Source: Gemmatimonadota bacterium
GTDB taxonomy: Bacteria > Gemmatimonadota > Gemmatimonadetes > Longimicrobiales > Gaopeijiaceae
Length of the DNA: 64,000 nt
Direction: 5' to 3'
Assembly (NCBI GenBank): GCA_034521595.1
Contig: JAXHMG010000001.1
Span: 32,001 to 96,000, forward strand
Part shown: positions 16,518-29,528 of the stretch, one piece after another
How positions within the stretch are numbered: the first letter of the stretch is position 1
How the letters are laid out: every line of letters starts with the position of its first letter
Program-made: the position numbers and the translations under genes
The notes under the pieces: model-generated
Told to the model about the DNA's origin: nothing
Seen by the model: only the letters and a program-made list of their open reading frames with translations
Databases searched by the model: none

Positions 16518-18107
16518 ATGAACGTCTCACGCCTACTGCGCGACCTCGCACGCCCGGACGCCTACCCGCATCCGGCCCCCGACGTCGAGGTACTACAGAC
16601 CCATATCTCCGTCGTCGCATTGGCAGGAGCCTACGCGTACAAGGTGAAGAAGCCGGTCGACCTCGGCTTCCTGGACTTCAGCACGCTCGAGAAGCGCCTC
16701 TACGACTGCCAGGAGGAGGTGCGCTTGAACCGCCGGCTGGCCGGGGACGTCTACCTTGGCGTGGTGCCCCTCGTCGAGTCCGACGAACACCTGACCGTCG
16801 AGGGCTCGGGTACGGCGGTGGAATACGCCGTCAAGATGGAACGCCTCCCGCCGGATGCGACGCTGCTCGAGCACCTCGAGAACGGCACCCTTGAAGCAGA
16901 CACGCTGCGCACGCTCGCCCACCGTATCGCGGCCTTCCACGCGGAGGCCGCCTCGGGGCCAGACATCGCACGTTACGGGGAATGGAGCGTCGTGGCCGGC
17001 AACGCCCGTGAAAACCTGGCTCAGTCGGTCGATCACGTGGGGTCGTACATCAGCCGGCCCGTTCACGAGCGGCTGCGCGGCGTGCTCGAGGAACGACTGG
17101 ACGCGCTGCGACCGCTGATCGAAGAGCGAGCCGAAGCCGGCGTTCCCCGCGACACCCATGGCGACCTCCACCTCGACCACGTCTACCTCTTCCCCGACCG
17201 TTCCGCCCCACGGGATCTCGTCGTCATCGACTGTATCGAGTTCAACGAACGGTTTCGTTACGCGGATCCGGTCGCGGACATGGCGTTCCTGGTCATGGAC
17301 CTGATCGCGCACGGACGGCGTGACCTGGCCGACGCCTTCGAAAACGCCTACTTCGACGCCATCGACGACGCGGAGGGCCGGGCGCTCGTGCCCTTTTACG
17401 TGTCGTATCGCGCCGCCGTACGGGGAAAAGTCGGTGGATTCATGGCCGAGGAGTCGGAAGTCCCGGCCAGCGAGCGCGAGACCGCCGCGGAGCGGGCACG
17501 GTCGCACTGGCTTCTGGCTCTCTCCGAGATCGAAGAACCGCACCGCCGGCCCTGCCTCGTGCTCGTCGGCGGGCTTCCGGGTACAGGGAAATCCACCCTT
17601 TCCGACGCGTTGGTCCGAGAACAGGGCTTTCAGGTGATCCGCTCGGATGAAGTGCGAAAAGAGCTCGCGGGCTTATCCAGTGGGAGTTCGGCCAAGGCCG
17701 CGTTCGGAGAGGGGATCTACACCGCCGAATGGAACGACCGGACCTACGAAGCGTGCCTCTCGAAAGCCCAGGAAGCGCTGTTCCGGGGTGAGCGCGTCAT
17801 CGTGGACGCATCCTTCCGCGAGGAAGGGCGGAGACGAGCATTCTTGGATGCTGCTCGGAACCTCGGCGTTCGGGCACTCTTCCTGAAGTGCACGGCCGAC
17901 CCCACAACGGTGCGTGAGCGCATACAAAGCCGGCGAGACAGCGCTTCGGACGCGGATTGGGCCATCTATCAACAGGCGGCCCAAGCCTGGGAGACCGAGG
18001 CGCCCGACCCCACCGGCGCGCGGACCCGGGTGGTCCAAGCCGACCAAGCGCTCGAGCAGGCGGTACGCACAGCGACGGCACACCTGAGCGAACACGGTCT
18101 CGCCTGA
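16518..18107 (+). CDS. Bifunctional aminoglycoside-phosphotransferase-like / AAA_33 P-loop kinase
   Basis: THISVV, KVKKPVDLGFLDFST, HGDLHL, IDCIEFN, then GGLPGTGKST Walker A. Confidence 0.88.
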   Translation: MNVSRLLRDLARPDAYPHPAPDVEVLQTHISVVALAGAYAYKVKKPVDLGFLDFSTLEKRLYDCQEEVRLNRRLAGDVYLGVVPLVESDEHLTVEGSGTAVEYAVKMERLPPDATLLEHLENGTLEADTLRTLAHRIAAFHAEAASGPDIARYGEWSVVAGNARENLAQSVDHVGSYISRPVHERLRGVLEERLDALRPLIEERAEAGVPRDTHGDLHLDHVYLFPDRSAPRDLVVIDCIEFNERFRYADPVADMAFLVMDLIAHGRRDLADAFENAYFDAIDDAEGRALVPFYVSYRAAVRGKVGGFMAEESEVPASERETAAERARSHWLLALSEIEEPHRRPCLVLVGGLPGTGKSTLSDALVREQGFQVIRSDEVRKELAGLSSGSSAKAAFGEGIYTAEWNDRTYEACLSKAQEALFRGERVIVDASFREEGRRRAFLDAARNLGVRALFLKCTADPTTVRERIQSRRDSASDADWAIYQQAAQAWETEAPDPTGARTRVVQADQALEQAVRTATAHLSEHGLA

Positions 18108-18234
18108 AGCCGAGTCGCGGCCAACTCGGCTTCAGATCGCGAGATCCCTCGGACAACAGCCCCGTCGTGGAAGCACGGCCGCGCTCGTCATCCACACCCG
18201 CGATTTCGGCGATGCACCCCGCGGGTGAGCGCCG

Positions 18235-18396
18235 TCAGGTCTTGCTCGACGTCTGCACGAAGGCCTGGAACACGCGGCTCACGTTCTCGCTGCCGCACTC
18301 CGAACACTTTTGTCGAGTCTCGTCGTGCTTGGCCATCGGCTCGTCGATCTCGAATTCGTGTCCGCAATCTTCGCAGCGGTAGTCATACATCGGCAT
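18235..18396 (-). CDS. FmdB-family zinc-ribbon protein (53 aa, below the ORF-track cutoff)
   Basis: MPMYDYRCEDCGHEFE...KCSECGSENVSRVF with two CxxC motifs; strong GGAGGAGG Shine-Dalgarno. Confidence 0.88.
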   Translation of the reverse strand: MPMYDYRCEDCGHEFEIDEPMAKHDETRQKCSECGSENVSRVFQAFVQTSSKT

Positions 18397-18569
18397 GGAG
18401 ATTTCCTCCTCCGAGGGGCATCGTTCGGCGAATGGACGAACGAACCACCGTGGGGCCCCGAAGCTGTTCGGCCTCGGGTCGACCCCGCACGACCAATCCG
18501 GCCGCCCCTACACGTGCAACCTACTCAACGGGAATGCTTTACGTAACCGGGGCCGGCACATTCACATGT

Positions 18570-18609
18570 AAAAAAATGCCCTCCGGCTCAATTGAGCCGG
18601 AGGGCATTT
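18570..18609 (-). terminator. Intrinsic terminator closing the tRNA array
   Basis: Perfect palindrome AAATGCCCTCCGGCTCAATTGAGCCGGAGGGCATTT with a T7 tract on the minus strand. Confidence 0.9.
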
Positions 18610-18619
18610 GAGAACGCTA

Positions 18620-18702
18620 CGGAGCGCGAGGGACTCGAACCCCCAAGCCCTTTCGGGCGCTCGCTTTCGAGGCGAGTGCATTACCAATTCTGCCAGCGCT
18701 CC
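18620..18702 (-). tRNA. tRNA-Ser(CGA)
   Basis: Cloverleaf; anticodon arm CTCGC-CT-CGA-AA-GCGAG; long variable arm; GGTTCGAGTCC. Confidence 0.93.
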
Positions 18703-18839
18703 AGATGGCCGGATCCCGGAAGCCCCCCTTGGGAACCACGGGAGAATAGCCTTGCCGGCCGATCGGATGATACCAGGTAATGGGGCGCGGGGTCCAGCCA
18801 CGCTTGATCGCCCGGCCTCAGTGATGCGTGAATGTCAGC

Positions 18840-19539
18840 GCCGCTTACGCGGCACACCAATCGGGGCGCCCGGATGGAGCTCCGGTCGCCTCCCGGCGAT
18901 CCTCGCTCGTCTCGGCGAAACCCCCTCAGACCCGCTGGCGCGGAACTGCCCTCTCGGCGCCTCGGCTCGAACCTCCGGTTCTCTTCCGGACGCTTCACTT
19001 CTCCGGCCGCTTACGCGGCACACCAATCGGGGCGCCCGGATGGAGCTCCGGTCGCCTCCCGGCGATCCTCGCTCGTCTCGGCGAAATCCCCTCAGGCCCG
19101 CTGCCGCGGGACTGCCCGCTCGGCGCCTCGGCTCGAACCTCCGGCTCTCTTCCGGACGCTTCACTTCTCCGGCCGCTTACGCGGCATGCCAATCGGGGCG
19201 CCCGGATGGAGCTCCGGTCGCCTCCCGGCGATCCTCGCTCGTCTCGGCGAAATCCCCTCAGGCCCGCTGCCGCGGGACTACCCGCTCGGCGCCTCGGCTC
19301 GAACCTCCGGCTCTCATCCGGACGCTTCACTTCTCTGGCCGCTTACGCGGCACACCAATCGGGGCGCCCGGATGGAGCTCCGGTCGCCTCCCGGCGATCC
19401 TCGCTCGTCTCGGCGAAATCCCCTCAGGCCCGCTGCCGCGGGACTGCCCGCTCGGCGCCTCGGCTCGAACCTCCGGCTCTCATCCGGACGCTTCACTTCT
19501 CCGGCCGCTTACGCGGCACACCAATCGGGGCGCCCGGAT
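18840..19539 (-). repeat. tRNA-Pro(CGG)-linked tandem repeat, four 166-bp units plus a partial unit
   Basis: Units start at 18840, 19006, 19172, 19338 and 19504; each contains the tRNA 3' end ATCCGGGCGCCCCGA. Confidence 0.95.
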
Positions 19540-19598
19540 TCGAACCGGGGACCTCTGCGACCCGAACGCAGCGCTCTACCGGACTGAGCCACGCCCCG
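19525..19598 (-). tRNA. tRNA-Pro(CGG)
   Basis: CGGGGCGTGGCTCAG...CTGCG-TT-CGG-GT-CGCAG...GGTTCGAATCC. Confidence 0.95.
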
Positions 19599-19662
19599 AA
19601 ACCGGTCTTGTGGGCCCAAGGCGCGTCGGCCGCTGGGCCTGCCTCGTTGTTTGTTCCAGCAA

Positions 19663-19920
19663 CTCGACCCACGCTCCCGATCTGCTGCGCAGATCGCCGC
19701 GTGGGTTCGAATTCATACTTTGACGCTCTTTCAAAACGGACGGGGTGGGATGGGCTCCGCTTCGCTCCGCCGCGTCGCGGGACTGCCCGCTCCGGCGCGC
19801 TCCGCGCGATCACCTTCCCTGGCCCGCTCGGCTCGACCCACGCTCCCGATCTGCTGCGCAGATCGCCGCGTGGGTTCGAATTCATACTTTGACGCTCTTT
19901 CAAAACGGACGGGGTGGGAT
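19663..19920 (-). repeat. tRNA-Ser(GGA)-linked repeat, 169-bp period, about 1.5 units
   Basis: Identical blocks at 19663 and 19832; duplicates the tRNA 3' end ATCCCACCCCGTCCG. Confidence 0.93.
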
Positions 19921-19989
19921 TCGAACCCACGCGGGCGTGAGCCCACACGATTTCCAATCGTGCGCCTTAAGCCACTCGGCCACCCGTCC
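19906..19989 (-). tRNA. tRNA-Ser(GGA)
   Basis: CACGA-TT-GGA-AA-TCGTG anticodon arm, long variable arm. Confidence 0.95.
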
Positions 19990-20089
19990 AGCTCGCTCGG
20001 GACGCGTCCACGAGACGTTTTCGCTAGTCGGTGGATCCGTCCAACTGGGGTCTTCGAACCCAGAACCGTTCTCGAACTGTTTTCCAATT

Positions 20090-20575
20090 CAATCAACTTC
20101 TCGTTCTTTCAGCGAGGAGTATGAGGCCGCTTCGTCGCCGGTCGGGAGACTTGGGCGCGCTCCGCCGCCACTGGGCTCAGCCCACGCTCCGCTCTGCTCG
20201 CAGATCGCCGCGTGGGTTGAATCAACCTTCGTCCTTTCAGCGGAGGAGTGGATGGGCTCCGCTTCGCTCCGCCGCGTCGCGGACTGCCGCTCCGCGCGAT
20301 CACCTTCCCTGGCCCGCTCGGCTCGACCCACGCTCCCGATCTGCTGCGCAGATCGCCGCGTGGGTTCGAATTCATACCTTCTCGTCCTTTCAGCGGAGGG
20401 AGTGGGATGGGCTCCGCTTCGCTCCGCCGCGTCGCGGGACTGCCCGCTCCGGCGCGCTCCGCGCGATCACCTTCCCTGGCCCGCTCGGCTCGACCCACGC
20501 TCCCGATCTGCTGCGCAGATCGCCGCGTGGGTTCGAATTCATACCTTCTCGTCCTTTCAGCGGAGGGAGTGGGAT
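20090..20575 (-). repeat. tRNA-Ser(GCT)-linked tandem repeat, 167-bp period, distal copies degenerate
   Basis: Identical blocks at 20322 and 20489; shortened or degenerate copies at about 20175-20320 and 20090-20175. Confidence 0.9.
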
Positions 20576-20646
20576 TCGAACCCACGCGGACCTTTCGGTC
20601 CAACGCCTTAGCAGGGCGTCGCCTTAAGCCACTCGGCCATCCCTCC
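20561..20646 (-). tRNA. tRNA-Ser(GCT)
   Basis: ACGCC-CT-GCT-AA-GGCGT anticodon arm, long variable arm. Confidence 0.95.
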
Positions 20647-20688
20647 AAAGCAAGGGCCGTCCGGCGTGGACGCTCCCTGGCATCTGAG

Positions 20689-20761
20689 TTGCCCCGCTAG
20701 GGATCGAACCTAGACTCTCCGGAACCAGAATCCGGCGTGTTGCCAATTACACCACGGGGCA
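20689..20761 (-). tRNA. tRNA-Gln(CTG)
   Basis: CCGGA-TT-CTG-GT-TCCGG anticodon arm. Confidence 0.95.
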
Positions 20762-20765
20762 GCAG

Positions 20766-20837
20766 AGCCACCTGTCGGATTTGAACCGACGACCCCGTCA
20801 TTACGAATGACGTGCTCTACCACTGAGCTAAGGTGGC
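20766..20837 (-). tRNA. tRNA-Thr(CGT)
   Basis: CGTCA-TT-CGT-AA-TGACG anticodon arm. Confidence 0.95.
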
Positions 20838-20844
20838 GGAAAAG

Positions 20845-20917
<73 letters not shown>

Positions 20918-20934
20918 AACGACACTCGGAATGA

Positions 20935-21008
20935 TGGGCGCGAGAGGACTCGAACCTCTGACCTCTACGATGTCAACGTAGCGCTCTAACCAACTGAGCT
21001 ACGCGCCC
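20935..21008 (-). tRNA. tRNA-Val(GAC)
   Basis: CTACG-TT-GAC-AT-CGTAG anticodon arm. Confidence 0.95.
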
Positions 21009-21037
21009 GGTCGTACGAACCGAGGATGCTGCTGCTA

Positions 21038-21111
<74 letters not shown>

Positions 21112-21127
21112 GCGATCGACGATGGAA

Positions 21128-21211
21128 TGCCCACGACAGGACTCGAACCTGTACGCCGTTTCCGGCACTGGTCCCTCAAACCAGCCTGTCTACCAATTCC
21201 AGCACGTGGGC
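21128..21211 (-). tRNA. tRNA-Leu(GAG)
   Basis: CTGGT-TT-GAG-GG-ACCAG anticodon arm, long variable arm. Confidence 0.95.
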
Positions 21212-21270
21212 AGAAGCCTGCATATCCTTCATAGGCCGACCGGGCCGCCCACCAACGGACGGCCGGTGCA

Positions 21271-21354
21271 TGCTCGAGGAGGGACTCGAACCCTCACGGG
21301 GTTTCCCCCACAGGATCCTGAATCCTGCGCGTCTACCAATTCCGCCACCCGAGC
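21271..21354 (-). tRNA. tRNA-Leu(CAG)
   Basis: CAGGA-TT-CAG-GA-TCCTG anticodon arm, long variable arm. Confidence 0.95.
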
Positions 21355-21389
21355 GCGGGCCGTCCTGAGCCTGCGAGGCCGTCCGACGA

Positions 21390-21462
<73 letters not shown>

Positions 21463-21529
21463 TCACGCATCACCTGGTGAAGCCGTCATTCTCGGTGCAT
21501 CGACGACTTCGCTGTCAAATAACGAGGAG

Positions 21530-21603
21530 CGGGGCTGACGAGACTCGAACTCGCGACCTCCGGTGTGACAGACCGGCACTCTAACCGACTGAGCTACAGC
21601 CCC
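21530..21603 (-). tRNA. tRNA-Asp(GTC)
   Basis: CCGGT-CT-GTC-AC-ACCGG anticodon arm. Confidence 0.95.
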
Positions 21604-21658
21604 TGATTGTGCTACCCACGGTGCTCGGCACCTTCTCCGTACGGCACCGCGACTTCTA

Positions 21659-21730
21659 TGCCCCGACGGGGAATTGAACCCCGATTACCACCTTGAAAGA
21701 GTGGTGTCCTAGCCATTAGACGACCGGGGC
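21659..21730 (-). tRNA. tRNA-Glu(TTC)
   Basis: CCACT-CT-TTC-AA-GGTGG anticodon arm. Confidence 0.95.
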
Positions 21731-21744
21731 GTACCTGGCGTTGA

Positions 21745-21817
21745 CAGGCCCGGAGGGACTCGAACCCCCAACCGCCGGTTTTGGAGACCGGTGCTCTACC
21801 AATTGAGCTACGGACCT
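21745..21817 (-). tRNA. tRNA-Trp(CCA)
   Basis: CCGGT-CT-CCA-AA-ACCGG anticodon arm. Confidence 0.95.
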
Positions 21818-21855
21818 CTAGTCTGTCGTGTCGCCCGGCCCCTGGGTATGGATCA

Positions 21856-21928
21856 TGGCCAGGGACGGAATCGAACCGCCGACACCACGATTTTCAGTCG
21901 TGTGCTCTACCAACTGAGCTACCTGGCC
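21856..21928 (-). tRNA. tRNA-Phe(GAA)
   Basis: CACGA-CT-GAA-AA-TCGTG anticodon arm. Confidence 0.95.
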
Positions 21929-21936
21929 CTCGACAT

Positions 21937-21969
21937 AAAAAACCGCCCGAACCATAGCGGCGCGGACGG
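21937..21969 (-). terminator. Terminator-like hairpin plus U6, ending 8 nt upstream of tRNA-Phe (candidate attenuator terminator)
   Basis: Minus strand CCGTCCG-CGCCGCTATGGTT-CGGGCGG-TTTTTT. Confidence 0.6.
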
Positions 21970-21993
21970 GATGCTTCAGGTAAGGCCGGCGAC

Positions 21994-22086
21994 TTACGCG
22001 GCCTGCCCCCCCGCCCGCGCAAGCGGGCTCCACGTATCGGACACCGTCAAGAGCGTAGACTGCTTCGGCAAGACGCGGGTCTCCAT
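21994..22086 (-). CDS. Candidate leader peptide (30 aa) METRVLPKQSTLLTVSDTWSPLARAGGQAA
   Basis: ATG-to-TAA frame overlapping mutually exclusive hairpins; the AGGA Shine-Dalgarno is only 2 nt from the ATG. Confidence 0.4.
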   Translation of the reverse strand: METRVLPKQSTLLTVSDTWSPLARAGGQAA

Positions 22087-22134
22087 CGTCCTAACGTGGC
22101 GAGCGCCGCCCTCCGGACGGCGCTCTTCGAACAA

Positions 22135-22208
<74 letters not shown>

Positions 22209-22219
22209 ACAGGGCTGAG

Positions 22220-22249
22220 AATCTATACCCTGTCGGCGCAAGCGGTCAA
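22220..22249 (-). promoter_or_regulatory. Sigma70-type promoter of the tRNA array
   Basis: TTGACC-18 nt-TAGATT, ending 11 nt upstream of tRNA-fMet. Confidence 0.6.
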
Positions 22250-22388
22250 CCCACGGCGGTGCGGCCCCCTCCTCGGGCCGTCGCTGACGGCCACCTCCCA
22301 GACTGTGCGGACCGTGTGAGGCGTGGTGTCGGAGGTCCGGAAGAGTGCATGTTTGGAGGGATCTTCCACCGACTTCCACAGGTCACTC

Positions 22389-23627
22389 GTGCTCGACGCA
22401 AACTTCATCGACCCACTGATCGCCCTCGGGCTCGGGCTCCTCGTGGGACTACAGAAGGAACGGACGTCGTCCCCTCTCGCGGGGCTGAAGACGTTCGGCC
22501 TGGCCAGCCTCTTCGGGGCGGTAGCCGCATTGGTCTCGATCGAGGTGGGCGGCTGGATTCTCCCCACCGGCCTGATCGCCGTGGTCGGGGTCATGGCCAT
22601 CGGCAACGCCATTCAGATTCGCGAGCACCGTGCCACGCCCGGACAGACCACGGAGGTCGCGATCCTGGTCATGTACCTGGTAGGCGCGTTGACCGTCGTA
22701 GGCACGACCGCCGTCGCCATCGTCCTCGGGGGAGCCGTCGCCGTCCTCCTGCATCTCCGGGAGGAGCTCCGGGGATTGGTAACCCGGATGAGCGACCGCG
22801 ACGTCCGCGCGATCATGCAGTTCGTGCTCGTTTCCCTCGTCATCCTGCCTGTCCTACCGGACCGGACGTTCGGTCCGTTCGGGGTCCTGAACCCCTACAA
22901 CATCTGGTTGATGGTCGTGCTGATCGTCGGGATCAACCTCGCGGGATACGCAGCCTTCCGATGGCTCAGCAGCCGGAGCGGCACGGCAGTGGCGGGGCTG
23001 CTCGGCGGAGTAGTGTCGAGCACGGCCACAGCCTTCGCATACGCCAGGAACGTCCGCTCGGGCGATCTATCCGCCGGGACCGGGGCAGTGATCATCTGGA
23101 TGGCCTCGAGCATCGTCTACATCCGCATCCTGATCGAGATCGGAGCGGTCGCGCCAAGGTTCCTACCGACCGCTGTGGGCCCGATGCTCGTGATGCTCGG
23201 CATGTTCGCGGCCATCACCGCTCTCACTTGGAACAAGGTGGCGGACGCCGGAGCCAACCCACTCGAGCTCAAGAACCCGACGCACATGAACGCGGCCATC
23301 GTCTTCGCCGCACTCTATGCCGGGGTCCTGCTGGCCGTCGCCGCCGCCGAAAGGTACCTGGGCGACGCCGGACTCTACGCTACGGCCGTGCTCTCCGGAC
23401 TCACGAACATCGACGCCATCACCCTCTCGACTGCACGCCTGGTCGCATCGGAGCGCGTGGACGAATCCGTCGGCTGGAGGCTCATCGTCGCGGCGAGCCT
23501 CTCGAACATGGTGTTCAAGCTGGGGATCGCACGGGTCCTCGGCGGTCGTGCGCTGGGGCGGAAGCTCGGTGGCTTGACCGCCATCGGAGTCGCGGCCGGC
23601 CTTGCCCTCATCCTACTCTGGCGGTGA
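22389..23627 (+). CDS. MgtC/SapB-family membrane protein with DUF4010
   Basis: LGLLVGLQKER, AGLKTF, GQTTEVA, LPVLPDRTFGPFGVLNPY, GGVVSSTAT. Start approximate. Confidence 0.88.
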   Translation: MLDANFIDPLIALGLGLLVGLQKERTSSPLAGLKTFGLASLFGAVAALVSIEVGGWILPTGLIAVVGVMAIGNAIQIREHRATPGQTTEVAILVMYLVGALTVVGTTAVAIVLGGAVAVLLHLREELRGLVTRMSDRDVRAIMQFVLVSLVILPVLPDRTFGPFGVLNPYNIWLMVVLIVGINLAGYAAFRWLSSRSGTAVAGLLGGVVSSTATAFAYARNVRSGDLSAGTGAVIIWMASSIVYIRILIEIGAVAPRFLPTAVGPMLVMLGMFAAITALTWNKVADAGANPLELKNPTHMNAAIVFAALYAGVLLAVAAAERYLGDAGLYATAVLSGLTNIDAITLSTARLVASERVDESVGWRLIVAASLSNMVFKLGIARVLGGRALGRKLGGLTAIGVAAGLALILLWR

Positions 23628-23763
23628 CTCGCGGCGCCCGCCGAGGGCGTGACCAGGCGCGACCCGTTGCGCGCGGTGCGGGGACGAGCCACGCTTTCAG
23701 GGGCCGGGCGGACGAGCCCGAGCCAGACGAGCAACGAGCTGAAGATAGTGGAGGATCCATACC

Positions 23764-24108
23764 ATGACCGACCTCGCCGAACGACATTGTGAAGCGTGCA
23801 AACCCGATTCCCCGACGGTGAGCCCCGAGGAGCGTGAAGAATTTCACGCTCAGGTGCCGGACTGGGACATCGTGGAGATCGGCGGCGTCCCGCAGCTGCA
23901 ACGTGCGTTCACGGTCCCCGACTTCGCGGAAGCCCTGGCCCTGTCCGATGAAGTCGGCGCCTTGGCGGAGGAAGAAGGCCACCATCCGGCCATCCTCACG
24001 GAATACGGGAAGGTCACCGTGCGGTGGTGGACGCACACCATCGGCGGGCTGCACAAGAACGACTTCATCATGGCGGCCAAGACCGACGAGCTCTTCGAGG
24101 ATCTGTAA
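23764..24108 (+). CDS. phhB: Pterin-4-alpha-carbinolamine dehydratase
   Basis: [31 protein letters not shown]. Confidence 0.92.
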
Positions 24109-24170
24109 GCGGACGTCACCGGCCGGGTCCGAAACAGGCAACCCGGAGGCTCCCTACCACCGACATCGGG

Positions 24171-25472
24171 TCAAGATCGCGGACGAAGCTCGCTGACGAC
24201 CTGGATGCCGCGAGCTACTTCGGGGATCACGCCCCTCTGCTCGTAAACCGGTAGCACCTGGGCCCGCAGCGCTCCGATCCGGCGCACGAACCAGGCCGCG
24301 AAGACCAGACAACCCATCCCACCCAAGGCCACGGCCGCCGGTGCTCCGATCCGACTCGCTATCGCTCCGCCCCCCAGGCTCCCGATCGGCATCATCCCCA
24401 TGAACGCCATCGTGTAGAGACTCATCACGCGACCGCGCATCTCCTCGCCGACCAGCGTCTGGACGACCGTGTTGATCGAAGCGGTCGTGAGCATCAGGCC
24501 AAAGCCACCCAGGGCGAGCATCGCACAAGAGAGGAGCAGGCTGCGGGACACCGAAAAGACCAGAAGCGTGGTTCCGAACAGCGCCAGAGCCCCCGCGATG
24601 ACCCGCCCGAGTCCCATCACCGTATCCCTCGAGGCGAGGTAGAGCGCGCCGGCCAGAGCGCCGGCACCCGACGACGCCGTCAGCAACCCGAGGGTGGTCG
24701 CATCCCCGTCGAGGATATCTCGGGCGAAGACGGGGAAGAGCACGACGTAGGGGATCCCCAGAAGCGATACACCCGCCAGCACGACGAGGAGGTCGCGGAT
24801 GGGCGCGAAGCCGAACGCGTAACCGAATCCCTCCCGGATGTTCTGAAGCAGGGCGCCGGCTCGCAGTCCTCGCTCAGCCGGTAGGCGCATCATGGCGAGG
24901 GCACCGAGGATCCCCACGAAGCTGACGGCGTTGAGCACGAAGACCGGCCCCTCGCCCCACCACCCGATGAGGATCCCGCCGAGCGCGGGTCCAATCAGCC
25001 GAGCCGCGTTGAACATCGAGGAGTTGAGGGCGATCGCGTTAGGAAGATCCGCCTGACCCTCCACCAGCTTCACCAGAAGCGCCTGCCGAGCCGGTATATC
25101 AACGCCGTTGATGACGCCCACCACGACCGCCAGCACCACAAGGTGCCAGACCTGCACCAGCCCGCCAATAACGAGCGCCGCCAGAACCACGGCCTGTACC
25201 ATGGCCAAGGTCTGAGCCACGGCGACCATCCGATAGCGGCTCCACCGGTCCGCGAGCGCTCCGGCGAACGGGGCCATCAAGAGCGAGGGGAATTGGCTCG
25301 AAAACCCGATCACCCCGAGCAGGAACGCGGAATCGGTGAGCCGATAAACGAGCCAACTCATCGCGACCTGTTGCATCCAGGTGCCGACGAGCGAGATACC
25401 CTGGCCCACGAAGAACAGCCGCAGATTGCGGTGGCGGAGCGCCCTCAGCGCCAAACGGATACGATTCGACAC
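24171..25472 (-). CDS. MFS transporter
   Basis: GQGISLVGTWMQ, GALADRWSR, NAIALNSSMFNAARLIGP, MRGRVMSLY. Confidence 0.92.
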   Translation of the reverse strand: MSNRIRLALRALRHRNLRLFFVGQGISLVGTWMQQVAMSWLVYRLTDSAFLLGVIGFSSQFPSLLMAPFAGALADRWSRYRMVAVAQTLAMVQAVVLAALVIGGLVQVWHLVVLAVVVGVINGVDIPARQALLVKLVEGQADLPNAIALNSSMFNAARLIGPALGGILIGWWGEGPVFVLNAVSFVGILGALAMMRLPAERGLRAGALLQNIREGFGYAFGFAPIRDLLVVLAGVSLLGIPYVVLFPVFARDILDGDATTLGLLTASSGAGALAGALYLASRDTVMGLGRVIAGALALFGTTLLVFSVSRSLLLSCAMLALGGFGLMLTTASINTVVQTLVGEEMRGRVMSLYTMAFMGMMPIGSLGGGAIASRIGAPAAVALGGMGCLVFAAWFVRRIGALRAQVLPVYEQRGVIPEVARGIQVVSELRPRS

Positions 25473-25570
25473 GTCCGACGCTAACGGGTCGGGGGATGAG
25501 AAGGGAGTGGAGGGTGTGATGCCCCCTCCCTCTGACGCTCGAGCCCGACGCCGGCGGCACCCGCTCCGTC

Positions 25571-25684
25571 GCGCGAGCCATGCACCCGGATGAGGACGGG
25601 CGCAAACAGCACGAGGAGATGGGCTTCCTCGAAGGATGGGGCACGTGCCTGGACCAACTCGTCGAAATGGTCAGGCGGTGGTGA
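25571..25684 (+). pseudogene. C-terminal remnant of an SRPBCC/AHSA1-family protein
   Basis: Translates ARAMHPDEDGRKQHEEMGFLEGWGTCLDQLVEMVRRW*; no room for the N-terminal part before the divergent MFS gene. Confidence 0.6.
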
Positions 25685-25740
25685 CATCGGCCGCCCAGGC
25701 GCTTCCCGCCACCGCCCCGAGTCTATAGTTTCACCGTCCA

Positions 25741-25814
25741 CGGGACGTGGCGCAGTCCGGTAGCGCACTGCAATGGGGTTGCAGGGGTCGCCGGTTCGAA
25801 TCCGGCCGTCCCGA
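25741..25814 (+). tRNA. tRNA-Pro(GGG)
   Basis: CGGGACGTGGCGCAG...CTGCA-AT-GGG-GT-TGCAG...GGTTCGAATCC; TATAGT just upstream. Confidence 0.95.
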
Positions 25815-26736
25815 TGGAGGCCTCACAACCAGACGGTTGTGAGGCCTCTTTTGTTTTCGGCCTCCATCGGGGCGGCCGGATTCGTGGACTCGCCAACAGG
25901 CGAGGACACGGCGCGACCCACGTCGCGCCAGAACCGTAGGTTCGAGACGAGCGGCCACATCAGTCGCTCCCGACCCACAAGCCCCACCGCGAGTCGAGCG
26001 AAGGGCGGGCGCGCCCCCGGCGCGCTCGACCGTAGCTCCATCCGGCCGTCCCGATGGAGGCCTCACAAGCCGACCGACAGGCTCTTCGCTCTCGGCCTCC
26101 ATCGGGACGGCCGGACGGATCCCTTGGTCGTCGATCGCCGGGAAGCACATGGGCCGACGACAGCTCGCGCTGTCGCGGAACGACCTCATCCGGCCGGCCG
26201 GATTCGTGGACTCGCCGACCGGCGAGGACACGGCGCGACCCACGTCGCGCCAGAACCGTAGGTTCGAGACGAGCGGCCAACAACGGTCGCCTCCCGACCC
26301 GACAAGCTCCACCGCGAGTCGAGCGAAGGGCGGGCGCGCCCCCGGCGCGCTCGACCGTAGCTCAATCCGGCCGTCCCATGGAGGCCTCACAACCAGACGG
26401 TTGTGAGGCCTCTTCTGTTTTCGGCCTCCATCGGGACGGCCGGATGGACTCCCTCTGGTCGTCGATCCGCCGGGGAAGCACATGGGCCGACGACAGCTCG
26501 CGCTGTCGCGGAACGACCTTATCCGGCCGGCCGGATTCGCAGACTCGCCAACAGGCGAGGATGCGTGGGGCGACAACGTCGTCCCACCGAACCGTAGGTT
26601 CGAGACGAGCGGCCAACATCGGTCCCTCTCGACCCGCAAGCCCCACCGCGAGTCGAGCGAAGGGCGGGCGCGCCCCCAGCGCGCTCGACCGTAGCTCCAT
26701 CCGGCCGTCCCGATCGAGGCCTCACAACCAGACGGT
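25800..26736 (+). repeat. tRNA-Pro(GGG)-linked tandem repeat: three units (240, 325, 334 bp) plus a partial unit
   Basis: ATCCGGCCGTCCC tRNA 3'-end copies at 25800, 26040, 26365 and 26699; shared bodies. Confidence 0.92.
25817..25857 (+). terminator. Intrinsic terminator after tRNA-Pro(GGG), repeated in the array
   Basis: GAGGCCTCACAACC-AGAC-GGTTGTGAGGCCTC-TTTTGTTTT. Confidence 0.8.
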
Positions 26737-26807
26737 CGACGCACACCCGTCCGCACGATAGCGTGTGAAGAAGCACCGACTTTTCCCCACCACACCGCGA
26801 GCCGACC

Positions 26808-29528
26808 CTGACTCTCCGCGACGTCTCCTTCCCGCCGAAAGACGAACCCCTCCGCCGTGATGTCGGCTTGCTCGGAGACATCGTGGGAAGGGTGATCCGG
26901 GAACAGGGAGGAGAGGAGCTCTTCCGGCGCGTCGAGCGCGCACGGCATGCCGCCATCCGCCGACGTGAGGGGGCGTCCGACGCAACGCACGAGGTCGAGC
27001 AGGCCCTGGCGGGGCTCGACGCCGAGCAAGCGGAGGAAGTCGTGCGTGCGTACTCCATGTACTTTCAGGTCGTGAACCTAGCCGAGCGGGTGCACCGGAT
27101 TCGCAGGGGCCGGGCCTGGATGCGGGAAGGAGAGGAGCCGCAACCGGGATCGCTCGCGGACACCGTGGAGCGGCTCCGCAAACGCGGCCTCGATCAGGAG
27201 CGGATGCGGTCGCTCTTCTCCTCCGCACGGGTCGAGCCGGTCTTCACCGCCCACCCCACCGAGTCCACGCGCCGGATCATCCTGGAGAAGCAGGACCGGA
27301 TCGCGGCCGAGCTGATCGGTCGGCTCAACCCCGAGCGCACGCCACGCGAGGAAGCGGTCGCGACCGCGACCATCCGTGAGAACGTCACGGCCGCATGGCA
27401 GACGGAGGAGCATCCATCGGCTCGACCCACGGTGGCCGACGAGCGGGAGCATGTCCTCTACTACGTGACGCGCACCCTTTACCGAGTCCTCCCCGCGCTG
27501 CACGAGACGCTGGACGAGGCGCTCGAGCACCCGGAGCAGACCTCGACCGGCGACCTTCCGCCCCTCATTCGGCCGGGATCCTGGGTCGGGGGCGATATGG
27601 ACGGAAACCCGAACGTCGATGCGAACACGGTCCGCGAGACGCTCCGCCGCCACCGGGACCTGACGCTGGAGGCGTACGAGCGAGAGGTCGGCGAGCTCGC
27701 CCGGAACCTGACGCAGTCGGCGTCGCGCGTGTCATGGAATCGGGAGATCTCCGTGCTCGGGGATCGCTACGGTGGATGGTTTCCGGAGACCGACCGCGCC
27801 ATCCCCGAGCGTCATCGCAGCATGGGCTACAGGGTTCTCCTGGAGCTCATCGGGGCACGCCTCGCCGCGACCCGTGCCGACTCCGAGCACGGGTACGCCG
27901 GCCCCGAGGAGCTGCTCGACGACATCAACGCGATCGCCAAGAGCCTCGTAGAGCACGACGGTACGCATGCCGGACTCTTCGGTGTCCGCCGACTGTTGCG
28001 GCGCATCCGGACGTTCGGTTTCCACATGGCCGCCCTGGACGTGCGTCAGGACGCCCGCGCCTTGCGTGAGGTCGCCGCGGAGCTCTTCGACGACCCGGCA
28101 TGGCCCGAACGCCCCTCCGAGGAACGGATCGAGCGGCTCCACGAAGCGCTCTCGAGCATGGAGCAGGGAGACGCGCGGACAGGGCGGGAAGGACTCAGCG
28201 ATGCGGCGCTCGACACGCTCGACGTCTTTCGGGCGATCTCTGAAGGACGCGGGGCGTACGGGGCGGATGCGATCGGTTCCTACATCATCTCGATGGCGGA
28301 GGATGTCGACGACGTGCTCACGGTCGCCTGGCTGGCCACGCTCGGAGGCCTCGGTACCACCGACGACCTGCCCCTCGACATCGCTCCGCTCTTCGAAACC
28401 GTCTCCGACCTCGAGCGTGCGGAAGAGGTCCTCGAAGCGCTGTTCACGGACCCCTTCCTGGGGCCACACGTATCTCGGCGCGGAAGCCGCCAGATCGTGA
28501 TGGTCGGGTACTCCGACTCCAACAAGGACGGAGGCATCGCCTCGGCACGGTGGGCTCTGCAGCGAGCCCTCGAGGGCATGGCCCGAGCGGCCACCCGACA
28601 GGACGTAACACTCACGGTGTTCCATGGACGCGGGGGTACGGTTTCTCGGGGGGGCGGCTCCGTGCACCGGGCCGTCGCGGCCATGCCGGCCGGATCGATC
28701 GGAGGTCGGCTGCGCCTGACCGAGCAGGGCGAAGTCATCGACGCGAAATACGGCCTGCCCCAGATCGCGCTCCGTAATCTGGAGCGGATGCTCGGGTCCA
28801 TCGTGCTTCGCGCGGCGGACCGCGGCGAGGACGAGGCTCCGCCACGGTGGCGGAGCCTCGCGGACACGGTGGCCGGGGCGGCACGCACCGCCTATCGGTC
28901 GCTCGTTTACGAAGACCCGCGTTTCACCGCGTACTTCCGTTCCGGAACCCCCATCGACGTGATCGAGCGAATGTCCATCGGGTCACGCCCACCGTCCCGG
29001 CGGTCGGGCGCGGGTGTCGAGGACCTCCGCGCGATCCCCTGGGTGTTCTCGTGGACCCAATGCCGGGCGATGATGACGGGCTGGTACGGGCTGGGAACCG
29101 GGTTGGAAGCGGCCCGGGCCGAGCACGGCCTCGGCCTCCTGCAGGAAGCCGCCGAGGGCTGGCCCTTCTTCGACACCCTCCTGGCCGATGTCGAGATGGT
29201 GCTGGCCAAGGCCGACCTCGAGATCGCCGGGATGTACCGGGCCTTGGCCCCGGCCCAAGCCCACGCGGTCTACGACCGGATCCGCGACGAGTTCGATCGG
29301 ACGGTCTCAGCGGTGCTCGAAATCCGGCAAAGCTCCGCCCTCCTCGATGACGATCCCACGCTTCAGCGTTCGATCCGCTTGCGAAACCCCTACGTCGACC
29401 CGATGAACATGCTCCAAGTCGACCTACTGCGCCGGTGGCGGCACGACGAGCGGCCGGACGGCGCTCTCCTCGACGCCCTGCTCGCGACGGTGAACGGGAT
29501 CGCACGGGGGCTGCAGAACACGGGGTGA
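26808..29528 (+). CDS. ppc: Phosphoenolpyruvate carboxylase (start uncertain: CTG 26808 or TTG 26868)
   Basis: VFTAHPTE, SWVGGDMDGNP, MVGYSDSNKDGG, FHGRGGTVSRGGG, LRAIPWVFSW, GLQNTG C-terminus. Confidence 0.95.
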   Translation: MTLRDVSFPPKDEPLRRDVGLLGDIVGRVIREQGGEELFRRVERARHAAIRRREGASDATHEVEQALAGLDAEQAEEVVRAYSMYFQVVNLAERVHRIRRGRAWMREGEEPQPGSLADTVERLRKRGLDQERMRSLFSSARVEPVFTAHPTESTRRIILEKQDRIAAELIGRLNPERTPREEAVATATIRENVTAAWQTEEHPSARPTVADEREHVLYYVTRTLYRVLPALHETLDEALEHPEQTSTGDLPPLIRPGSWVGGDMDGNPNVDANTVRETLRRHRDLTLEAYEREVGELARNLTQSASRVSWNREISVLGDRYGGWFPETDRAIPERHRSMGYRVLLELIGARLAATRADSEHGYAGPEELLDDINAIAKSLVEHDGTHAGLFGVRRLLRRIRTFGFHMAALDVRQDARALREVAAELFDDPAWPERPSEERIERLHEALSSMEQGDARTGREGLSDAALDTLDVFRAISEGRGAYGADAIGSYIISMAEDVDDVLTVAWLATLGGLGTTDDLPLDIAPLFETVSDLERAEEVLEALFTDPFLGPHVSRRGSRQIVMVGYSDSNKDGGIASARWALQRALEGMARAATRQDVTLTVFHGRGGTVSRGGGSVHRAVAAMPAGSIGGRLRLTEQGEVIDAKYGLPQIALRNLERMLGSIVLRAADRGEDEAPPRWRSLADTVAGAARTAYRSLVYEDPRFTAYFRSGTPIDVIERMSIGSRPPSRRSGAGVEDLRAIPWVFSWTQCRAMMTGWYGLGTGLEAARAEHGLGLLQEAAEGWPFFDTLLADVEMVLAKADLEIAGMYRALAPAQAHAVYDRIRDEFDRTVSAVLEIRQSSALLDDDPTLQRSIRLRNPYVDPMNMLQVDLLRRWRHDERPDGALLDALLATVNGIARGLQNTG

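Follow-up and report, generated by a model that had tools for sequence, protein, structure and literature searches.

Leader-peptide attenuation is textbook knowledge for trpL of Escherichia coli and for the his, leu and pheA leaders. In leaders of this type, a short open reading frame (ORF) led by a Shine-Dalgarno (SD) sequence carries its regulatory codons just before region 1 of an RNA in which helices 1:2, 2:3 and 3:4 exclude one another. A terminator with a U-tract lies directly before the regulated genes, the stop codon is placed so that a ribosome finishing the leader blocks region 2, and in trpL Trp codons act as the sensor. Accounts of tRNA synthesis in bacteria usually place its control at the promoter, in the form of stringent and growth-rate control. 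Here we describe a locus that combines these two subjects. The features listed for trpL-type leaders recur in a 205-nucleotide (nt) spacer (22133-21929) between the genes for tRNA-fMet and tRNA-Phe in a 64,000-nt stretch of contig JAXHMG010000001.1 from a Gemmatimonadota bacterium, hereafter the window. Coordinates are positions in the window, and all features of the operon lie on the minus strand. We put at about 0.7 the probability that this spacer works as a leader-peptide attenuator, mediated by the ribosome, for the main tRNA operon, with Trp, together with Asp and Thr (ACG), as its test codons. The bacterium would then probably raise these tRNAs when its ribosomes read a few test codons slowly.

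The unit is one operon, consisting of a conserved promoter, tRNA-fMet, the spacer and 16 elongator tRNA genes. According to ARAGORN, 17 tRNA genes follow one another, starting with tRNA-Met(CAT) at 22209-22134 and ending with tRNA-Ser(CGA) at 18703-18619; Rfam agrees. A first-pass annotation, made from the letters of the window, had called the first of them an initiator. We agree, because by eye its 1:72 pair is not Watson-Crick and its anticodon stem contains three G-C pairs, unlike the genome's other two CAT tRNAs, which have G1-C72 and no initiator features. The order that follows is Phe, Trp, Glu, Asp, Ala, Leu, Leu, Arg, Val, Ala, Thr-CGT, Gln, Ser-GCT, Ser-GGA, Pro-CGG and Ser-CGA. With 49 tRNA genes in the genome, the array holds about one third of those of the cell. 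It contains the only genomic copies of Trp, Phe, Asp, Thr-CGT, Ser-GCT, Pro-CGG and Leu-CAG, and also those of Leu-GAG, Arg-ACG, Val-GAC, Ala-CGC, Gln-CTG, Glu-TTC and Ser-CGA. Made up mostly of sole copies, it is the core tRNA operon of the cell and no mobile spare set.

The promoter upstream of tRNA-fMet is the sole match to its pattern within the array region, and by eye a (GGG)TTGAC -35 and a TAnnnT -10 stand at the equivalent place in 46 of 46 motif-bearing relatives. Between the terminator of the spacer and the regulated genes such a signal is not conserved: 39 of 40 spacers lack a TANNNT hexamer 4-40 nt before tRNA-Phe, and a promoter scan of the window finds none there. The regulated genes are preceded by an intrinsic terminator, with no -10-like hexamer after it in 39 of the 40 spacers. 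To reach 16 essential tRNA genes, RNA polymerase therefore has to get past a canonical terminator, and this is our main argument for termination being regulated or at least tuned. The locus could instead be two separate units, one that comprises tRNA-fMet and a gene for a small protein and stops at the terminator, and another in which the 16 tRNAs have a promoter of their own, such as the CTGAAG-17-TATGGT to which the first-pass annotation had pointed. That promoter-like sequence is present in the window (21979-21951) but is not conserved, the sole hexamer being that in one of the 40 spacers, and the U-tract leaves only 8 nt before tRNA-Phe. We regard two units as very improbable.

The array order Met-Phe-Trp-Glu-Asp and the Met-to-Phe spacer recur in Gemmatimonadota relatives, with tRNA-Trp as the second gene past the switch in every array examined. 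An IUPAC motif derived from the alignment was scanned over 185,579 species, one genome each. It gave 34 matches, 33 of which fall within the Met-to-Phe spacer of the same array; the 34th is truncated where its locus ends, yet tRNA-Phe adjoins it. The matching records are labelled Gemmatimonadota, Gemmatimonadales or Longimicrobiales, apart from one (L082) labelled Solirubrobacterales, which is probably a binning or labelling error, its contig having a Gemmatimonadota-type array and leader. The same ORF and hairpins were found in the spacers of 46 distinct relatives, and later of more than 60, and the element is kept in numerous genera within a single family. It is this conservation in relatives, and not statistics on the window only, that raises the spacer above chance.

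Distribution was assessed in two ways. A covariance model built from the 3' half of the element recovered it from 22 of the 62 same-family genomes with a completeness of 90% or more (0 of 24 in one large genus) and did not find it in two sister families (0 of 39 and 0 of 49 genomes). Several of the family's carriers are single-contig genomes. The 22 matches at the Met-Phe junction all have the leader ORF, 17 by script and 5 by eye. Retrieval of junctions by their tRNAs, which is unbiased with respect to spacer sequence, gave the leader in 10 of 12 same-family junctions, in 0 of 7 from one sister family (among them L011, from the unpublished genome G025) and in 1 of 6 from the other. In this second sister family, the spacers L022 and L027 are 242-247 nt long and hold SD-led ORFs of 33-35 codons. 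The ORF of L027 reads ...EADSWRYGASRAGGASR-stop, with the stop inside a GCCGGUAAGACCGG hairpin. This ORF looks like a diverged homologue of the leader, though the covariance model missed the element in that family.

In the window, the minus-strand ORF 22086-21994 encodes METRVLPKQSTLLTVSDTWSPLARAGGQAA, followed by a stop, in its 30-codon form from ATG 22086. For this form an SD only 2 nt from the ATG had been remarked on. AGGA does stand 2 nt before ATG 22086; the start itself is probably TTG 22071, which occupies the homologous start column, and with this start the problem of spacing is gone. For comparison of leaders, 46 motif-bearing spacers were anchored on their Asp-Thr-Trp codons. A short ORF with its own ribosome-binding site and start is found in 43 of the 46, as an SD-like tetramer 4-11 nt before an in-frame start that stays open to the motif, and SD-preceded start codons number 50 in this frame versus 7 and 3 in the others. 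The start column swaps among ATG (17), GTG (15) and TTG (11), with an in-frame stop immediately upstream in five leaders, and the stop codon swaps among TAA, TAG and TGA at a single place. Leaders come in two sizes, a short form of 24 codons and a long form of 35-45, with the consensus M-Q-T-S-S-F-W-T-V-[S/A/T]-D-T-W-S-P-R-x-R-A-G-A-x-x-R-stop.

Outside the hairpins, variation within the leader is three-periodic. Among 40 canonical leaders, the Val codon is GTC in 20, GTG in 9, GTT in 4 and GTA in 3, the Asp codon is GAT in 28 and GAC in 12, and the position between the two encodes Ser, Ala or Thr by many different codons. The GAT used in those 28 of 40 is rare, at 20% in the genome, and 26 of 43 leaders begin with GTG or TTG; such starts and the use of GAT may tune initiation and decoding speed. 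The last residue before the stop is mostly Arg, and otherwise Pro, Ala, Leu or Phe. Neither the 30-residue nor the 25-residue peptide matched a Pfam or NCBIfam family at E up to 10, leader and arrest peptide families included.

To which codons would such a leader respond? In the 40 canonical leaders, the Asp of Asp-Thr-Trp (D-T-W) is kept in 40, the ACG in 39 and the TGG in 40, with a gap of 1 nt between the Trp codon and region 1. In diverged leaders, [D/E]-x-W is still present, in one case as E-A-W for D-T-W, and each contains 2-4 Trp codons, Trp being the common denominator. Region 1 is made of codons 14-16 and region 2 of codons 17-20, and a ribosome shields about three codons past its A site. 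Given this footprint and these positions, only codons 11-13 (D-T-W) in the A site would open 1:2 and leave region 2 free. We infer this stall window from textbook ribosome dimensions. Trp makes up 11.5% of leader codons versus 1.46% in the genome, and ACG accounts for 90 of 101 leader Thr codons versus 50%. Synonymous choice leans towards array-read codons for Glu and Pro as well, with GAA used 8 times in 13 and CCG 17 times in 21. Downstream of the spacer lie single-copy genes for the tRNAs that read UGG and GAY and for tRNA-Thr(CGU), the cognate reader of ACG; a tRNA-Thr(UGU) gene is present elsewhere in the genome, outside the array. The conserved signal in these alignments is thus narrower than the first-pass annotation had it, namely Asp-Thr-Trp placed exactly in the proposed stall window, with strong over-representation of Trp.

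The RNA that overlaps this ORF was analysed in an alignment of 20 short-form spacers (A1), for which RNAalifold predicts the helices P0, Px, 1:2, P2 and the terminator 3:4 (Table 1). In this terminated form, 94.9% of cells pair, a value that 0 of 500 shuffles reach and that lies at 39-50% in slid controls, and 10 pairs have double changes. Hairpin 1:2 (GCCCGC-TTGC-GCGGGC, 22028-22013) pairs in 98% of cells, with C-G replaced by U-A in three sequences. The terminator helix is 93-96% paired with double changes in two pairs, and P2 has them in five of six. In a set of 40 sequences (A2), P1 and the terminator are 95.2% paired with 10 double-change cells, again reached by 0 of 500 shuffles. P2 aligned poorly in the 40-sequence set owing to indels, and per-sequence folds were used instead. 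In all but one of the 40 leaders (the exception is L082), the minimum free energy (MFE) structure is a hairpin that encloses the stop codon, of which 2-3 nt are unpaired in 39 leaders and 1 nt in L006; the mean free energy is -17.6 kcal/mol and the mean z -2.5. The antiterminator 2:3 is 96.4% pairable in the 40 sequences versus 45-65% for slid controls. The mutually exclusive helices 1:2, 2:3 and 3:4 are all at least 94% pairable, with clear covariation for 1:2, P2 and 3:4. At equivalent positions, regions 1, 2, 3 and 4 read U/A/U/A in L035 and L042, and in L038 three of the four are changed, leaving a G-U in helix 3:4. This joint change is as expected from alternative pairing, but it is probably a single event.

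Folding with a masked ribosome agrees with such a switch. Masking at Trp removes the terminator hairpin from the MFE structure of 8 of 12 leaders, and by eye a 2:3 helix closed over P2 replaces it in 7 of those 8. Masking at the stop codon allows the terminator to form in 11 of 12. The ORF, hairpin 22028-22013, the 11-nt pairing of 22020-22010 with 21970-21960 and the terminator with U6 are all where the first-pass annotation had placed them, and the core of its proposal, a translation-coupled terminator/antiterminator switch gating the array, is borne out by the conserved in-frame ORF, the kept helices and the lack of a conserved internal promoter. The comparison of relatives that it had called for gave a conserved frame, with SD and with start and stop swaps, and compensatory changes in 1:2, P2 and 3:4.

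Table 1. Features of the tRNA operon and of its putative attenuator (positions in the window)
Feature	Position	Strand	Basis	Detail
Promoter	22220..22249	-	pattern search	sigma-70-type, TTGACC-18-TAGATT; directly upstream of tRNA-fMet
tRNA-fMet	22134..22209	-	ARAGORN, Rfam	initiator; heads the operon and lies upstream of the switch
P0	22101..22125	-	MFE fold	11-bp GC hairpin directly after tRNA-fMet
Px, 5' strand	22094..22099	-	predicted long-range helix	CCACGU; pairs with ACGUGG (Thr-Trp codons, 22035-22030)
Shine-Dalgarno	22081..22084	-	sequence	GGAG, 9 nt before TTG 22071
Leader ORF	21994..22071	-	homology of start column	from the homologous TTG start; 25 codons + TAA, M-PKQSTLLTVSDTWSPLARAGGQAA
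Proposed regulatory codons	22030..22038	-	conservation	GAT ACG TGG (Asp-Thr-Trp)
Region 1	22023..22028	-	alignment	GCCCGC; 5' arm of hairpin 1:2
Region 2	22010..22020	-	complementarity	GCGCGGGCGGG; pairs with region 1 or region 3 (antiterminator)
P2	21978..22009	-	fold	hairpin between regions 2 and 3; stop TAA (21996-21994) in apical loop
Region 3	21960..21970	-	complementarity, alignment	CCCGTCCGCGC; 5' arm of terminator and partner of region 2
Intrinsic terminator	21937..21969	-	terminator detection	CCGTCCG...CGGGCGG + U6; ends 8 nt before tRNA-Phe
tRNA-Phe	21928-21856	-	ARAGORN	first gene past the switch
16 elongator tRNA genes	18619..21928	-	ARAGORN; same order in relatives	regulated set
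Array terminator	18574..18609	-	terminator detection	strong; closes the array; 16-bp stem + T7

Two further helices of the spacer have less to say about the switch. P0 pairs in 96.8% of cells, with double changes in two pairs (A1), and may be a pause, processing or stabilising element. A role as terminator of tRNA-fMet was considered and rejected, as P0 lacks a proper U-tract: the window has none, and kin show no more than TTT. Px encloses the SD and the first 12 codons and pairs in 96.7% of cells, with C-G to U-G as the sole variation; having no double change, it was dropped as a supported helix. No Rfam family, T-box and leader RNAs such as Trp_leader, Thr_leader, His_leader and Phe_leader included, was found in the spacer at E up to 1 (scan of 17000-27000).

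What the spacer and its relatives show directly is an ORF conserved together with the signals for its translation, a set of kept helices, no conserved promoter inside the spacer, and single-copy tRNA genes downstream. From these sequences we infer that the leader is translated, that termination occurs, where the ribosome would stall and in which direction the operon would respond. Transcription would begin at the conserved promoter and always give tRNA-fMet, after which the polymerase would reach a 24-25-codon leader ORF overlapping the RNA switch. If the leader is untranslated, or quickly read to the stop in the P2 loop, region 2 would be held by region 1 or covered by the ribosome. With region 2 unavailable, the 3:4 terminator would form and RNA polymerase would halt 8 nt before tRNA-Phe. 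A ribosome that lingers while its A site holds the codon for Asp, for Thr (ACG) or most importantly for Trp (UGG) would melt region 1 and free region 2. Region 2 could then pair with region 3 over P2, the terminator would not form, and the polymerase would enter the 16 elongator tRNA genes. Since the sole genes for tRNA-Trp, tRNA-Asp and tRNA-Thr(CGU) lie downstream, the circuit would lift the output of elongator tRNAs upon slow decoding.

A stronger form of this idea is a tRNA homeostat, in which decoding speed at UGG, GAY and ACG on a test ORF sets the transcription of an operon with a third of the tRNAs. We consider its chances to be slightly short of even. If it is true, the initiator gene, being upstream, escapes control, and the ratio of initiator to elongator tRNA is tuned by translation itself. 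Such feedback on tRNA supply would be distinct from the stringent and growth-rate control of tRNA promoters.

Several observations weigh against an attenuator that senses codons. The first concerns the proposal of the first-pass annotation that the ORF samples the whole array. By our recount, 20-21 of 29 elongator codons are indeed readable by the array, and a run of eight codons is read by eight different array tRNAs. However, the enrichment does not reach significance within the window, where the count gives P = 0.08-0.13 against a background of 55-61% and the codon run P = 0.08-0.16 (P = 0.02 for the run of distinct tRNAs). Across leaders, the idea fares moderately better. Of codons 2 to Trp-13, 82.5% are array-read in 43 leaders, and of distinct position-codon pairs 191 of 281 (68%), versus a background of 54.6% and 54% and 57% in the other frames. 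These figures give moderate support to some multivalency beyond D-T-W, with the limit that they come from kin sequences and are no proof.

Secondly, the peptide itself is conserved. W-T-V-x-D-T-W is kept as amino acids, with four codons for Val and a fixed W-x3-D, none of which a pure codon sensor needs. In addition, the first Trp is absent in the window (TTG), L007 and L054, and the invariance of ACG at Thr-12 could be explained by pairing in Px and not by choice of tRNA. Such conservation raises the possibility of nascent-peptide arrest, in which W-x3-D-T-W-S-P-R-x-R-A-G stalls the ribosome from within the tunnel, possibly with a ligand such as free tryptophan, so that the response depends on the peptide and not on tRNA supply. 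The W-x3-D is kept even in the diverged RGWLVADTW, RGWATSDAW and LRWFPSDTW, and its spacing and the R-A-G stretch are reminiscent of TnaC and SecM. However, regions 1 and 2 encode S-P-R-x-R-A-G, and pairing of the RNA therefore explains why this part is conserved. The leader ends in Arg-stop and not Pro-stop, the missing first Trp in the three leaders named above speaks against arrest as well, and no Pfam or NCBIfam leader or arrest family was matched. Finally, region 2 would lie under a ribosome stalled at R-A-G, which would promote termination. Arrest is therefore an improbable explanation, and we prefer attenuation by slow decoding.

The folding results also leave room for doubt. The single-sequence fold of the window is only mildly better than that of shuffles (z = -1.99). 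Covariation in 2:3 is weak, being confined to one pair (G-C in 29, G-U in 8 and A-U in 3) and three cells, which 33-44 of 500 shuffles reach; these cells probably come from one clade. Part of the complementarity of 2:3 arises because regions 2 and 4 are near-identical. In constrained folding, 4 of 12 leaders still form the terminator with the ribosome masked at Trp, and without a ribosome the terminator is the MFE structure in only 7 of 12. These folds put the two states at similar energies, so that the choice between them must be kinetic.

A terminator without the leader is found at some of the same junctions. L008 and L012, from the same family, keep P0 and a U-tract terminator with no credible SD-led ORF; their spacers (227-229 nt) are highly structured, with MFE values of -115 and -137 kcal/mol, and may hold another type of switch at the equivalent site. 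In the sister-family junctions L011, L014, L016, L017, L020 and L025, the spacer is 55-57 nt long and consists of a GC hairpin and a T-run, without an ORF. A terminator at the Met-Phe junction can therefore exist without translation control, and to judge from the short spacers it seems older and more widespread than the leader. This would suit a constitutive, leaky terminator, a hairpin that lowers transcription after tRNA-fMet, and so sets the ratio of initiator to elongator, or that marks a processing site, with the ORF and 2:3 playing no regulatory part. The weak covariation of the antiterminator and the sparse finds of the covariance model (22 of 62 same-family and 0 of 88 sister-family genomes) fit it too. 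A passive spacer, however, would not keep SD-led starts in 43 of 46 relatives, a frame bias of 50/7/3, swaps of start and stop codons and synonymous variation. Nor does it account for a stop at the apex of P2 and D-T-W right before region 1 in all canonical leaders, or for the linked changes in regions 1, 2, 3 and 4. We therefore consider a purely leaky terminator unlikely, if less so than peptide arrest, and retain the leader-peptide attenuator as our interpretation.

Three more points have to be set against the attenuator. With a strong terminator ahead of essential tRNA genes that have no second copy, basal read-through would have to be high. Because the sequences are related, counts of them overstate how independent they are. 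Finally, no RNA sequencing run with the spacer was found, shared words being at most 0.18 in any run. In the four runs that were aligned, only two tRNA genes were covered, by contigs of other organisms, and 21930-22124 was uncovered. Two contigs, from libraries guessed to be RNA, join tRNA-Phe and tRNA-Met over 266 other letters, presumably the spacer of a relative; contigs are blind to transcript ends.

Other features of the array are given here for completeness. Promoter-like TGGACC-18-TATCAT with a TG extension lies at 18796-18767 on the minus strand, before the last tRNA gene, and Ser-CGA may be driven by this promoter of its own. The gaps after tRNA-Ser-GCT, tRNA-Ser-GGA and tRNA-Pro-CGG (20560-18840, minus strand) consist of tandem repeats of about 175-180 nt in 3-5 copies, each copy beginning again with the final 20-25 nt of the preceding tRNA. 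They look like repeated duplications of tRNA 3' ends or att-like scars. A phage origin of the array was considered and dismissed; distant blastn against phages matched tRNA parts only, and the array is chromosomal and conserved in kin.

If a core tRNA operon is indeed under attenuation, ribosomes would report the sufficiency of tRNA directly and correct a shortfall, which bears on how cells fit tRNA supply to translational demand. It would also extend leader-peptide attenuation to Gemmatimonadota and to non-coding targets. The element is conserved, compact and readily testable by reporters. In the literature searched, which comprised listings, abstracts and passages of PMC2965389, we found no published leader-peptide attenuator of tRNA genes, and a term search of PMC2965389 gave 0 mentions of tRNA genes.

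How, then, does the spacer compare with known systems? For all its likeness to trpL-type leaders, it differs in that the Trp codons are apart (W-x5-W) and not tandem, that an extra covarying hairpin, P2, with the stop codon, stands between regions 2 and 3, and that the leader lies inside the operon, downstream of an initiator tRNA gene, with no match of sequence or family. Above all, its targets are 16 tRNA genes and not genes of amino-acid biosynthesis; the regulated genes of a leader-peptide attenuator make or charge the sensed amino acid, which these do not. The multivalent thr, ilvGMEDA and ilvBN leaders of enterobacteria, as given in textbooks, also have different codons in the stall window, here Asp, Thr-ACG and Trp, so that the leader could report on more than one charged tRNA. 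The codons of those leaders correspond to amino acids that their operons make, whereas here they correspond to the tRNAs that the operon encodes, with enrichment beyond D-T-W being moderate. The pheM leader of pheST (Phe_leader in Rfam) is similar in that a leader peptide controls part of the machinery that decodes the sensed codon; its target is a synthetase, whereas here it is tRNA genes, and the spacer has no Rfam match at E up to 1. In T-box riboswitches, too, transcriptional read-through depends on the state of tRNA, but a T-box binds uncharged tRNA directly and without translation, whereas this spacer has a conserved, apparently translated ORF and no T-box match. TnaC shares the W-x3-D spacing, but it has a C-terminal Pro before the stop where the leaders here mostly have Arg, and the distances differ. 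Taken together, the mechanism is most likely leader-peptide attenuation of the trp/thr type, and what would be new is that tRNA genes are its targets.

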